This document shows, piece after piece, positions 6,253 through 11,222 of a stretch of 64,000 nt of DNA (within the stretch, counting starts at the first letter, position 1; the number at the start of each line of letters is the position of its first letter). Origin of the DNA: a phage. The position numbers were made by a program, and so were the translations under genes. The stretch lies in sequence record OZ346219.1; one strand, given 5' to 3'. Below the pieces are notes generated by a model. It made no database searches, was not told the DNA's origin, and was given only the letters and a program-made list of their open reading frames with translations.

Positions 6253-6729
6253 TTATTTTTCTTGATGCTCGCGATCGTACTTTTCGAAATAAAATTCTAC
6301 TGGCTGGTCATGAATTGACAGTAAGCCAAAGCGTTTAGCCGCTCGCAATCCCATATTGCGCTGAATGTACTTCTGGAAGTTCTCGCGTATACACTTACGC
6401 CAGTATTCTAAGCCCATACAGCTTTTATAAAGATTGCATTGCACACACGCCGGATTCATGTTATCAAGTATATCATGTTCCGGTTTATGCATTCCTACAA
6501 CCTTATACTTCCACGATCCATCATCATTACGGGCAATTCGTCCATTTTCATCATAGACTACCTTTGAGCGTCGCAATACTGGTTTGATGTGGTCTGCGTG
6601 CCAGCGATCCCCTAGTTCCTCGCCACAATAGGCACAACGTCCACCATATTTCATTTTCAGGATCTGGCGTTGCTCTTTCTTTGACATTTTTTTAGGTTTA
6701 GGGGCTTTCGCCCCTTCATTATCACACAT
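6253..6729 (-). CDS. HNH-type endonuclease-like zinc-finger protein
   Basis: CAYCGEELGDRWHADHIKP (CxxC...HxDH) plus downstream CVQC; start may be the internal Met at 6687. Confidence 0.5.
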   Translation of the reverse strand: MCDNEGAKAPKPKKMSKKEQRQILKMKYGGRCAYCGEELGDRWHADHIKPVLRRSKVVYDENGRIARNDDGSWKYKVVGMHKPEHDILDNMNPACVQCNLYKSCMGLEYWRKCIRENFQKYIQRNMGLRAAKRFGLLSIHDQPVEFYFEKYDREHQEK

Positions 6730-8224
6730 CGAATACCTCTTTTACTGTATTTGCAGTGGTCTTGTCGTATCGAATACGTTTGATGATCGGGAGAAATAAA
6801 GAGAACTCCGGTTCATCTTCTTTACGTGATTTGCTGCGGATATACCCGTTGCATGTCATCTCAATGACTTTTCCAATCAGGTTATGACGGTCAGCCCATA
6901 ACATTTCTCGGTCGAGTTCATTTCGACGATCGAACGGAATTACACGTTCAGTACCATCATCACCTTTTTCGGTTGTAGTGTCGGTTAATCCCGATCCGGT
7001 GTTAGTCATCATTCGTCCGCACGCACTACGGACAGTAAAACCGCCTACCTTATTGGGGTCTTTACTATGCGGATATACATCAACAATTTCCGCGTCGAAG
7101 TCAATCACTTCTTTAAATTTAACCTGATCTTTACTACGGCGATCTTCAAATACACCATGTAAATTTTTAAGGATAATACCTTCTAAGCCCATGTTGACAT
7201 AACGATGATATACTTCGCGAGCTTCATCGATATTGTTAACTACAGTGTTTTCGATGATCTGAACACGAGGATCGTTAAGTTCTTCAACAATCTGTTTTAG
7301 TTCTTCGAATCGATCTTTATATTGCTTCGTTGCTTTCTCGTTTCCGTAATACACATCACGGTCGATAACATCCCAGACAGTGTAAACAATACATTGGGCT
7401 TCTTCTTTTGGAATAGTTCCTTTCAGTGATTTGTTGAGGATACCATTTCCGGTCTGACGATCTGCAACAACGGATTCTTTTACTGCTTCCGCTACTGGCG
7501 TTAATGGCATTTCCTCTTCTTCAAATATCCATGACAGAGTACCATCATAAACGCTTTCAACGAAGTTCTGCGCTGGTGTTTGCGAAAGGGTAGGCATATA
7601 TACCAATTCCCCATCTAGAACAATTCCACGGCCTCGTAGACGCTCTAAAACCGCAAACAAATCATCAAGCCCTTGATAGGTATTACCTGAGCGGGTATAG
7701 ATTGCTAATGTTTCCCCGTCAATATCAGCCATACCACGAGCGCCATCGCTTTTAAGTTGTGCATACGCCGGATACTTGATATTAGCAATAGTCTTATCAG
7801 AACATGACGATGCAAGGTGGCACGGTTGCTGAGGGATCAGTTTCTTCCATACCTTGTTTGCGGTGGTAGCGGAACAACCGCATTCCAGATCACGATTCAG
7901 GACCATCATTGCAACTTTAGCATCATCCTCTGACAAGCAAGTCAGAGTATCGGTAACTAGCTGTAATGCTGCATTACCAGTTACTTGACGCGTGGCAAGT
8001 TTATTTTTAAAGACCTGTAATGCACCGGATAAAGACAATACAGACGAATAGCGAGATGGTTTATCGTATTTCTTTACGCCAAACGTAACCTGTTTGCAAT
8101 ATGCCAGATAAAAGCATTCTTTCAGCGTTTCATTGCTTGCTGATTCTTTCAGAATCTTTTCTTTCAGCGATGTTTTGTCTGTTGCTGCAAGCTGATTAAT
8201 GATATTAAGAATTGACATTTTCAC
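6722..8224 (-). CDS. 30: ATP-dependent DNA ligase (T4 gp30-like)
   Basis: 500 aa; adenylation motif LKSDGARG; T4-like length and position. Confidence 0.9.
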   Translation of the reverse strand: MKMSILNIINQLAATDKTSLKEKILKESASNETLKECFYLAYCKQVTFGVKKYDKPSRYSSVLSLSGALQVFKNKLATRQVTGNAALQLVTDTLTCLSEDDAKVAMMVLNRDLECGCSATTANKVWKKLIPQQPCHLASSCSDKTIANIKYPAYAQLKSDGARGMADIDGETLAIYTRSGNTYQGLDDLFAVLERLRGRGIVLDGELVYMPTLSQTPAQNFVESVYDGTLSWIFEEEEMPLTPVAEAVKESVVADRQTGNGILNKSLKGTIPKEEAQCIVYTVWDVIDRDVYYGNEKATKQYKDRFEELKQIVEELNDPRVQIIENTVVNNIDEAREVYHRYVNMGLEGIILKNLHGVFEDRRSKDQVKFKEVIDFDAEIVDVYPHSKDPNKVGGFTVRSACGRMMTNTGSGLTDTTTEKGDDGTERVIPFDRRNELDREMLWADRHNLIGKVIEMTCNGYIRSKSRKEDEPEFSLFLPIIKRIRYDKTTANTVKEVFDV

Positions 8225-8684
8225 CTCGTTTTGTTAAACGTTCACGAATATCATTGAGGATACTACAAAATTCCGATTCAGTCAATATAGTCTTTAACGG
8301 ATCAGTTCCACCTATACTATGACGTAATTTCTTATTTCCGGTAGCGAGTAATGCTTTACAAAATTCTGGGTTATTCCGTGCCATCGTAACAAATGCCAGA
8401 TGCACCAGTCTGTAATAATGCTCACTCATTCGATGAATCGGGCGACCCTGAAAATATAACAGGTGATTCTCAATCTTTTCAGTTCTTCCGGTTCTTTTTG
8501 CTTTGCCACCGTGCATCAAAAAGATTTCTCTTTGTCTCTGAGGGTTCTTAAATCTTAGCCCCTGTAAAAATCCTTCTGTGCTGTTAATATCGCAACCAAA
8601 TAAACGGAATGGTCTTTTATTGAAATTACTCAATTCACCCGATGGATAAGGTCCACCCGCATAGATATCAATTTCAGAAGTCAT
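8205..8684 (-). CDS. NADAR/YbiA-like domain protein
   Basis: IDIYAGGPYPSGELSNF...STEGFLQGLRF...ALLATGNKKL resembles YbiA/NADAR signature (FY..G.FSNF...SEHYFQA.KF...LL.T). Confidence 0.5.
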   Translation of the reverse strand: MTSEIDIYAGGPYPSGELSNFNKRPFRLFGCDINSTEGFLQGLRFKNPQRQREIFLMHGGKAKRTGRTEKIENHLLYFQGRPIHRMSEHYYRLVHLAFVTMARNNPEFCKALLATGNKKLRHSIGGTDPLKTILTESEFCSILNDIRERLTKRGENVNS

Positions 8685-8859
8685 TGAAACTAATCTCGCT
8701 AATCAGAGAGAACGGATCATAATCGTCATTAGGAATATCGATAGTAATCGAATGAGGATTTACCCATACACCAAACTGGTCTTCTTCGGTGAATACTTCG
8801 GTATGGATTTCGTGGATGTTTACATTCATAGTTTTCATAATAAATTCCTTAATAATCAA
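8674..8859 (-). CDS. hypothetical protein (61 aa)
   Basis: ORF between NADAR-like gene and gene 31. Confidence 0.3.
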   Translation of the reverse strand: MIIKEFIMKTMNVNIHEIHTEVFTEEDQFGVWVNPHSITIDIPNDDYDPFSLISEISFNDF

Positions 8860-8919
8860 TAACTTACAAAATCATATAGCCAAAATATAGGCGGGATTAT
8901 TTCCCGCCGTTTAAAATCA

Positions 8920-9243
8920 TTAACCGTAAACTACCACAATATTCTGTTTGTGCGTTACAGTCCATTTCAGGTCGATCTCTTCTTCCTTCTTAACGCCGTT
9001 AATAACGTCTGGATGAGGAACTTTATTCATCTTGCCATGTGGCAGTAGAACAGTTTTACCCAGCAATTCTTTATCTACCGTCTCGCCAATATCAATAATC
9101 TTACCTACCAGCGGAATCTCGCCCATAGTGCGCTTTTGCTCAATAATGATCCCAATAGAGCTTTTTACTTCTGTCCCTGCGCTTTCTGCTTTAGCTTCAA
9201 TGATCACATAGTCACCAAGTGCTTTAGGAGTTTTAACGGTCAT
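8920..9243 (-). CDS. 31: co-chaperonin GroES-like (T4 gp31-like)
   Basis: 107 aa; GDYVII...NKVPHP resembles gp31/GroES; T4-like position before cd. Confidence 0.7.
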   Translation of the reverse strand: MTVKTPKALGDYVIIEAKAESAGTEVKSSIGIIIEQKRTMGEIPLVGKIIDIGETVDKELLGKTVLLPHGKMNKVPHPDVINGVKKEEEIDLKWTVTHKQNIVVVYG

Positions 9244-9284: not shown

Positions 9285-9605
9285 TTATTTATAAATTTCG
9301 ACGATCTGCGCTGGAGTCAGCCCGTCTACATTAATCAGAGTATCAAGCCCAAAACTACGGAAACCTTCAACTGCAATTTCATATACTGGCAAAGATGTTT
9401 CTGATTCTTTACGCGGTTTTTCAACATTAGGAACTAACCACTTTTCGTATGTTTCAAACGGCATCAGTGCCGGATCTCGCGTGGCGATCATCTCACGGAC
9501 AGTACCATCTTTCTTAGTAAACTGCAAAGAGTGAGTACCGACCGAAAACATTTTCTTTAGTGCTTCACGAAGTGCGATATTATCAACTTGTTCAGTCATT
9601 ATCAA
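9285..9605 (-). CDS. hypothetical protein (106 aa)
   Basis: ORF between cd and gene 31. Confidence 0.4.
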   Translation of the reverse strand: MIMTEQVDNIALREALKKMFSVGTHSLQFTKKDGTVREMIATRDPALMPFETYEKWLVPNVEKPRKESETSLPVYEIAVEGFRSFGLDTLINVDGLTPAQIVEIYK

Positions 9606-10323: not shown

Positions 10324-11222
10324 TAAAAGTCTCCGTAGTTAACCTGAAAACATTCTACACCAATTGAGCGATACATGTCAACCACTTGATCACGGTCATC
10401 TACCGCCAAAACAACATGATAACGCGGTGCAATTTCAGAGAAGAAGATCTCTTTCTTCACTTCATGATCAGGACGACGATCATTAGTTTCACGTTGAAAG
10501 TGATCACTCGGTTCAATACCCTGTTCACGCAACCATTGCAGAGTATCTTCTTCGCAAACATCCTCACGCCCTGAGCATGTAATGATACGATAACCATTAT
10601 CACGATACAGTTTAAGCATTTCGACCACTTGCGGACGAGGTTTATCTTCTTTGACCTTTGTCCAGTCAAACGGATGACGACCGCCCTTATCCGCTAATGT
10701 CCCATCAATATCAAAGATCACTGCCTTTGGCAGCATGGTATTCGGTTTGTATACTTCTTGACCCATATATTCCTGCATCAGATAAAATTGGTTGCGCAAA
10801 TGAGAAAGTGGAATTGCTTTCTCACCGCGATAGAAATTACGTTTCTTTAGTGTCTCAAATGATTCATTGAACACTTGTTCAGTATACACCGCGTTAAATT
10901 CTTTTGCAAGTTCTTTGTAGAATACACGATGTTTTTCTTTCAGGTTGGTATCAGAGATAATGATACTTAATCCGCGTGATAGAGTCTCACGAGCAATCAT
11001 TCTCTGAATAGACTCTACCAGCTTTTCTTTTTCCTTAGTATACTTGTATTTCAAATGTGAGTCAACACCAAACAACATAAGACGAAGATCATCACGATTC
11101 ACATTACGATAATTACTAAACCGTTTACATGTTTCCATCGCCCATGTAGTTTTACCGGACCCAGAACAACCAACGGTTAAAATCACTTCACATTTCGGCA
11201 TTATTTCTCCTTCGGTTTGCAC
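10323..11222 (-). CDS. pseT: polynucleotide 5'-kinase/3'-phosphatase
   Basis: 299 aa; N-terminal P-loop GCSGSGKTT and C-terminal HAD phosphatase motif VIFDIDGTLAD. Confidence 0.9.
   Translation of the reverse strand: MQTEGEIMPKCEVILTVGCSGSGKTTWAMETCKRFSNYRNVNRDDLRLMLFGVDSHLKYKYTKEKEKLVESIQRMIARETLSRGLSIIISDTNLKEKHRVFYKELAKEFNAVYTEQVFNESFETLKKRNFYRGEKAIPLSHLRNQFYLMQEYMGQEVYKPNTMLPKAVIFDIDGTLADKGGRHPFDWTKVKEDKPRPQVVEMLKLYRDNGYRIITCSGREDVCEEDTLQWLREQGIEPSDHFQRETNDRRPDHEVKKEIFFSEIAPRYHVVLAVDDRDQVVDMYRSIGVECFQVNYGDF

Follow-up and report, generated by a model that had tools for sequence, protein, structure and literature searches.

Introduction

In vitro, the gp30.3 protein of bacteriophage T4 removes ADP-ribose linked to guanine in DNA by hydrolysis (PMC11125620). 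G-ADPr on RNA is also a substrate of this enzyme, which is not listed among the C-ADPr-reversing enzymes (PMC12945103). Johannesman et al. renamed it AdfN, for anti-DarT factor NADAR, and found it necessary and sufficient for the resistance of T-even phages to DarTG1 (PMC11825919). Resistance to DarTG1 in T2, T4, T6 and Bas35-47 is accounted for by full-length AdfN alleles. RB69 is sensitive to DarTG1 because a frameshift in its adfN truncates the protein and takes away the C-terminal helix, with loss of activity. The E36A and K43A variants of T4 AdfN are impaired. The phages tried against DarTG1 in that work were all Tevenvirinae (T2, T4, T6, RB69 and Bas35-47), and T4 AdfN was fully effective only in T-even infections, so that it may need another phage factor (PMC11825919). 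T4 can do without gene 30.3 on E. coli K-12, and phages with a transposon inserted in this gene drop out on hosts carrying DarTG1 (bioRxiv 10.1101/2025.11.20.689424).

The residue found in the last strand of the fold is Glu in YbiA-type NADARs and Asp in those linked to DarT1, and the phage NADARs (gp30.3) are set apart by a His (De Souza and Aravind, as summarized in PMC11125620 and PMC11543638). The catalytic Glu, E88 in the NADAR of E. coli C7, binds the distal ribose (PMC11543638). Other phage proteins fall into the same category of counter-defence against ADP-ribosylation by DarT: AdfN-Bas32 and AdfN-Bas60, which were acquired independently, fall into different NADAR branches and act without the phage context; AdfA and AdfB, which are not NADARs and seem to bind DarT and thereby block it (as shown for AdfA-RB69 R164H); and AdfM, a non-NADAR macrodomain directed against DarTG2. 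We found no publication on DarTG that deals with RB49 or any Krischvirus, and RB49 is absent from the accessible portions of the published supplementary NADAR lists.

Results

Organization of the adfN locus

The window, a 64,000-nucleotide stretch of phage DNA (OZ346219.1), carries adfN on the minus strand as an open reading frame of 159 codons with an ATG start, exactly where the preliminary description had placed a NADAR/YbiA-like gene (Table 1). The motifs read by eye in that description are all present (LSNF at residues 18–21, STEGFLQGLRF at 35–45 and ALLATGNKKL at 111–120), and the position of the gene between DNA ligase and gene 31 is borne out by the profile matches of both neighbors. 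A 54-residue open reading frame and a terminator-like hairpin (8908..8890) intervene between adfN and gene 31.

Table 1 Positions of the genes, residues and sites described in the text
Feature	Position in the window	Strand	Basis
Gene 30, ATP-dependent DNA ligase, downstream of adfN	6722..8218 (8224 if GTG)	-	PF01068, E=2.8e-22; PHROG 114, E=1.4e-141
adfN, homologue of gene 30.3; phage NADAR of 159 aa, predicted to be a DNA guanine ADP-ribosylglycohydrolase	8205..8684	-	ATG start
C-terminal helix, residues ~136-155, intact	8216..8279	-	AlphaFold2 model
His122, codon CAT, phage-NADAR-specific His	8319..8321	-	Replaces the Glu of YbiA-type or the Asp of DarG1-type enzymes in the last strand
Arg44, codon AGA, at the phosphate-coordinating Lys site (T4 K43, YbiA K55, E. 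coli C7 K95)	8553..8555	-	Alignments
Glu37, codon GAA (T4 AdfN E36, YbiA E48, E. coli C7 NADAR E88)	8574..8576	-	Pairwise alignment, hhalign
54-aa ORF	8674..8838	-	PHROG 15277, E=5.6e-42; annotated in W115, MIZ6 and Delraymugoa
Terminator-like GC-rich hairpin with T-run, immediately behind gene 31 and ahead of 54-aa ORF, adfN and ligase	8890..8908	-	Consensus scan and sequence
Gene 31, GroES-like head-assembly co-chaperonin, upstream neighbor	8920..9243	-	PHROG 931, E=1.8e-36; weak Cpn10 match; annotated in relatives

An overlap between adfN and the ligase gene exists as described before, but its extent was given as 20 nt, which requires the ligase to start at the GTG at 8224. The most likely start is instead the ATG at 8218, which is preceded by a GAGG Shine-Dalgarno sequence (8227..8224) with a spacer of 5 nt and is the start annotated in three Krischvirus genomes, where it gives a 498-residue ligase. 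The overlap is therefore probably 14 nt.

A stretch of 3.5 kb around adfN is 98–99% identical to about 60 E. coli phages of the genus Krischvirus (the RB49 group), and the adfN product is 100% identical to the protein of phage RB49 itself. Across the adfN region the window is colinear with phage W115, coordinate for coordinate, and Krischvirus genomes share an unchanging block made up of the gene 31 hairpin, the 54-residue ORF, adfN, the ligase and an HNH endonuclease. The insertions present in MIZ6 and Delraymugoa are located on the downstream side of the HNH gene and do not touch the adfN module. The neighborhood is rich in nucleotide-metabolism genes, as is usual in T4-type phages. In the part of W115 that is colinear with the window (~46.6 kb of the window), the annotation includes neither an Alt-like ART nor a macrodomain gene. 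A scan of viral contigs yielded two close relatives and one poor match. The order of genes is also kept around a more distant homologue, P0002 (69–71% identity), where pseT, cd, a WYL_2 protein, gene 31, the 54-residue ORF and adfN are followed by a downstream gene that occupies the position of the ligase and overlaps adfN by 14 nt.

Predicted expression

The block is compact, with overlaps of 11, 14 and 8 nt. The first of these joins the stop of the 54-residue ORF to the start of adfN, which makes translational coupling of the two likely, and the 3' end of adfN contains both the ribosome-binding site and the start codon of the ligase. A consensus scan detected no terminator-like site inside adfN; this, together with the compactness of the block, is what would be expected if adfN were co-transcribed and translationally coupled with the ligase, and the co-expression suggested in the preliminary description is plausible from the arrangement of the genes. 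The hairpin behind gene 31 is a pattern match only, the number of sites returned by the scan being no higher than in shuffled sequence. Between this hairpin and the 54-residue ORF, neither the scan nor the sequence revealed a sigma-70-like site or a T4 late TATAAATA box, and transcripts of the block probably originate at promoter-like sites located further upstream, such as that at 10381..10352, and arrive by read-through. The adfN product would probably be made early, from a polycistronic message.

Family assignment and predicted fold

The adfN product belongs to the phage gp30.3 family and is a NADAR-superfamily protein. Its score against Pfam PF08010 (Bacteriophage protein GP30.3, Phage_30_3) is 131.9 bits (cut-off 36, E=1.8e-38), over positions 2–138 of the 138 in the profile, and its match to PHROG 652 has E=5.5e-45; both values are far outside what chance would give. 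Pairwise alignment with T4 gp30.3 gives 38% identity over the full length (E=3e-30) and extends to the last residue of the T4 protein. The family is large: tblastn matches occur in 1510 phage records, and at E<=1e-3 it counts 1665 cluster representatives (clusters at 50% identity).

The link from this family to the NADARs is more remote. The Pfam NADAR model PF08719, the profile to which the preliminary description had pointed, scores the product at 15.4 bits (E=0.022), below its threshold of 35.1, the model being simply too distant; 13 of 68 gp30.3 family members match it individually at E<=0.01. The NCBIfam model "NADAR family anti-phage protein" is also below threshold (13.5 bits, cut-off 240), the PADLOC models gave no match to the product, and profile HMM searches against PDB sequences reached YbiA weakly, with E=0.12 and then 0.018. 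Since such sequence-profile evidence is unconvincing by itself, hhalign and structural searches were needed. An alignment of 68 gp30.3 family sequences, compared by hhalign with an alignment of 29 YbiA-type NADARs, matched over 141 columns with a probability of 98.0% (E=2.9e-13), and in the resulting register the three motifs fall on the conserved NADAR motifs FSNF, TSEHYFQAQKF and LLLATAPAKL of YbiA, LSNF and the pattern SxE...Q..(K/R)F being aligned. The AlphaFold2 model is confident (pLDDT 94.2, pTM 0.89) and predicts the α+β core fold of the NADARs with no added parts. When this model was compared with the PDB by Foldseek, the only matches were YbiA (2b3w, E=3e-6) and a Phytophthora NADAR with ADP-ribose (8bau). 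Membership of the NADARs, as proposed from the motifs, is thus upheld by hhalign and by the fold, and not by an above-threshold match to PF08719.

A single-sequence phmmer search against the PDB also returned a D-alanyl carrier protein ligase (7vhv, E=7e-4). We attribute this match to chance, since none of the conserved motifs falls within it, it is absent from both structural searches, and the profiles rank YbiA first.

The active site

The conservation of the active-site residues was assessed in 167 aligned family domains, made up of the 150 best of the 1665 family representatives, the earlier matches and T4. Glu37 occupies the position of the catalytic Glu, and Glu is found there in 162 of the 167 domains. 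His122, which immediately follows the last strand of the predicted model (residues 119–121), aligns with a His in 158 of 162 domains. The position of Arg44 is Lys in 159 of the 167 domains and Arg in six. Of the catalytic residues whose loss was to be looked for according to the preliminary description, Glu37 and His122 are therefore retained, and the Lys has undergone a conservative exchange for Arg; the refuting conditions set in that description apply only superficially. Every other conserved position of the family agrees with T4 AdfN, the change from Lys to Arg at position 44 being the lone difference. This change keeps the charge, and it would bear on the efficiency of the enzyme rather than on its homology.

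Distribution and conservation of Arg44

Among the 150 best representatives, Arg44 in combination with an intact Glu and His is restricted to the clade of the window, formed by the window, P0001 (98% identity) and P0002, and to P0144, an unrelated protein of 355 residues. In the remaining cases, Arg at this position is found in second domains of tandem proteins, which also lack the Glu. Six Krischvirus alleles were compared, and all of them have the Glu, the Arg and the His, with a fixed AGA codon for the Arg. Differences between Krischvirus adfN alleles are mostly synonymous, for example 15 synonymous against 3 non-synonymous codons, and the gene is under purifying selection in this genus. The shared AGA codon, the synonymous excess and the synteny around P0002 argue that the lineage acquired Arg44 long ago and has maintained it, and that it is not a sign of decay.

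Two published substitutions at this position bear on its consequences. In the DarG1 NADAR of E. coli C7, the K95R mutant still hydrolyses its substrate in vitro but gives cells no protection from DarT1 in vivo (PMC11543638), which makes the efficiency of the Arg44 enzyme in vivo uncertain. In T4 AdfN, the K43A variant still partly restores the plating of RB69 on hosts with DarTG1 (PMC11825919), from which it follows that the position tolerates change.

Comparison with other NADARs

The gene is the Krischvirus (RB49-group) orthologue of T4 gp30.3/AdfN and encodes a minimal single-domain NADAR. The two proteins share the PF08010 match, a single-domain core of about 155 residues, the same Glu, the His of the phage type and the C-terminal helix, and they differ at position 44, where T4 has K43, a residue that has been tested by mutation. 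The genes also occupy the same place, with gene 31 on the upstream side and the ligase gene 30 on the downstream side, and a small upstream ORF overlaps the start in both. However, in T4 genes 30.2 and 30.1 lie between 30.3 and the ligase, whereas here adfN abuts the ligase, and the ten genes found in T4 between 30.3 and gene 31 (30.4 to rIII) are replaced by the single, unrelated 54-residue ORF. Genes 30.1, 30.2 and 30.4–30.9 are absent at this locus. The idea that the 54-residue ORF is a diverged T4 30.4 was rejected, as no similarity was found on comparison.

The DarG1 antitoxins (E. coli C7; G. lovleyi, PDB 8bat) are encoded next to DarT1, whereas adfN is an orphan with no ART neighbor. 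They have a catalytic Asp in the last strand instead of His and an N-terminal extension that brings them to 219–234 residues (219 in 8bat), compared with 159 and no extension here; T4's version, for its part, is no antitoxin in uninfected cells. E. coli YbiA (2b3w, PF08719) is defined by a last-strand Glu, E125, in place of His122. It is a host gene located beside dinG, ybiB and rhlE, in an operon described as LexA-controlled (PMC11125620). On these features, the adfN product would be neither a NADAR of the YbiA type nor a DarG1 antitoxin.

Discussion

The preliminary description suggested a role of the gene in counter-defence or nucleotide repair. The counter-defence part agrees with what has been published for T4, whose family member de-ADP-ribosylates guanine in DNA and shields T-even phages from DarTG1 (PMC11125620, PMC11825919), and it is right on the strength of that published function. 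The tests proposed in the description are already published for the T4 orthologue, and the feature itself, as a recognized member of a characterized family, is already known. By analogy, the adfN product is probably a guanine-specific DNA ADP-ribosylglycohydrolase, which removes from replicating phage DNA the ADP-ribose installed by DarT1; for the chemistry and the anti-DarTG1 role we rely on published work on T4 AdfN and other NADARs. In an infected E. coli cell carrying DarTG1, DarT1 would move ADP-ribose from NAD+ to the N2 amino group of guanine in the phage DNA, and this modification would stop phage replication. The phage NADAR would then bind the ADP-ribose, with Arg44 in place of the usual Lys holding the diphosphate and Glu37 and His122 flanking the distal ribose, and cut the N-glycosidic bond between ribose and guanine. 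The DNA would thus be returned to its unmodified state and replication would go on.

The rarity of Arg44 in the family leaves some room for a competent NADAR whose main substrate in vivo is another one, such as G-ADPr RNA, free ADP-ribosylated nucleotides or soluble ADPr-derived defence molecules, and whose Arg44 reflects that preference. NADARs of all four families, that of T4 included, do hydrolyse RNA G-ADPr in vitro (PMC12945103), and K95R in the DarG1 NADAR separated activity in vitro from protection in vivo. We nevertheless consider a different main substrate unlikely. Protection against DarTG1 is the sole in vivo phenotype known for the family, all other conserved positions agree with T4 AdfN, and the context offers no link to NAD+ salvage or to partners specific for RNA repair beyond the T4-type neighborhood. 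The failure of the K95R NADAR in vivo could also be read as a sign that adfN is a weakened or non-functional allele comparable to the truncated adfN of RB69, which is itself an example of the natural loss-of-function alleles that exist in the family; RB49-type phages would then be sensitive to DarTG1 or use other factors. Such a defect is quite improbable for an ORF that is intact and full length, with its C-terminal helix present. In addition, AGA is fixed at codon 44 in six alleles whose synonymous changes outnumber the non-synonymous ones, the gene is kept at 69% identity in conserved synteny, which points to a maintained function, and the T4 and E. coli C7 variants at this position retain, respectively, partial rescue and activity in vitro.

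Finally, E. coli YbiA is the best structural match, and nucleotide-metabolism genes are abundant nearby, as would be expected if the protein were a YbiA-like N-glycosidase acting on riboflavin-pathway intermediates or in housekeeping nucleotide metabolism and were co-expressed for metabolic reasons with the ligase, cd and pseT. This is a very improbable role, given that the last-strand Glu that defines YbiA is replaced by His122 and that T4 needs 30.3 only in the presence of DarTG1, where it is essential, and not on E. coli K-12 free of defences. Compatible with a NADAR of the phage type, though rather unlikely, is that the natural Arg44 AdfN represents a specificity variant within this group, the 54-residue ORF perhaps being the phage-specific cofactor suggested for T4 AdfN.

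What is new beyond the known family is the Arg44 fixed in the lineage and the coupled 54-residue ORF, the effect of Arg44 on efficiency or specificity being a small point. Should the Arg44 enzyme turn out to be protective for the phage, the Lys would be dispensable in vivo and efficacy would be set by the context or by partner proteins. If it gives no protection, AdfN of the RB49 type would have been retuned to RNA, to nucleotides or to a different DarT1 variant. For Krischvirus candidates in phage therapy, resistance to E. coli carrying DarTG1 is predicted. The practical value lies in annotation, since the published function, DNA de-ADP-ribosylation in counter-defence against DarTG1, can be attached to a homologue that, in about 50 rows sampled from the 1510 phage records, is almost always labelled "hypothetical protein".

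Genes and elements flanking adfN

The 54-aa ORF that precedes adfN, the gene for the homologue of T4 gp30.3/AdfN, in the direction of transcription is kept in all the Krischvirus relatives examined, as well as in a relative with a 69%-identical AdfN. T4 has an overlapping ORF at the analogous position, 30.4, but the window ORF is unrelated to it. As T4 AdfN seems to require a phage-specific factor (PMC11825919), the 54-aa ORF could be an AdfN partner. Its 3' end, stop codon included, shares 11 nt with the 5' end of adfN. Directly 3' of gene 31 lies a GC-rich hairpin, GGCGGGAAATAATCCCGCC, with a T-run after it; judging only by this pattern match, the hairpin may attenuate read-through into the block formed by the 54-aa ORF, adfN and the ligase gene.

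At the other end of the block, the last 8 nt of the ligase gene, stop codon included, lie within the HNH endonuclease gene. The segment directly downstream of the HNH gene varies among Krischvirus genomes, with differences of ~0.35 kb and ~1.5 kb (Delraymugoa and the MIZ phages), a polymorphism consistent with a mobile homing-endonuclease neighbourhood.

Features of the window discussed in the text
Feature	Coordinates	Strand	Match or basis
HNH endonuclease gene	6253..6729	-	PF01844; PHROG 2118
54-aa ORF	8674..8838	-	PHROG 15277, function unassigned
GC-rich hairpin, then T-run	8890..8908	-	Pattern match only
Gene 31.1-like protein gene	9285..9605	-	WYL_2 / Sm-like SH3 barrel, PF10902, E=1e-9
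Thymidylate synthase ORF, 410 aa	19467..20699	-	Pfam Thymidylat_synt

Tandem NADARs and database annotation

Four metagenomic gp30.3-family members of ~290 aa (P0022, P0031, P0058 and P0088) are tandem gp30.3-type NADARs. One domain retains the Glu and Lys, its alignment ending short of the His position; in the other, the catalytic Glu is replaced by N, Q or A, and the Lys is sometimes Arg. This arrangement suggests a catalytic domain joined to a pseudo-enzyme domain.

The adfN homologue is a “hypothetical protein” in nearly all the rows sampled (~50 of 1510 phage records), including RefSeq T4 NP_049816.1 (L001 3498..3956), and these labels persist despite the characterisation of AdfN in 2024–2025. 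The gene 31.1-like WYL_2 protein is named “tail fiber protein” in several deposited genomes, which looks like an annotation error spread from PHROG 10657.

Thymidylate synthase

The Pfam profile matches the thymidylate synthase ORF in two separate stretches, with residues 254–410 corresponding to profile positions 110–266; this split implies that ~130 aa have been inserted in frame into the central part of the protein. The T4 thymidylate synthase gene, td, is instead interrupted by a group I intron.
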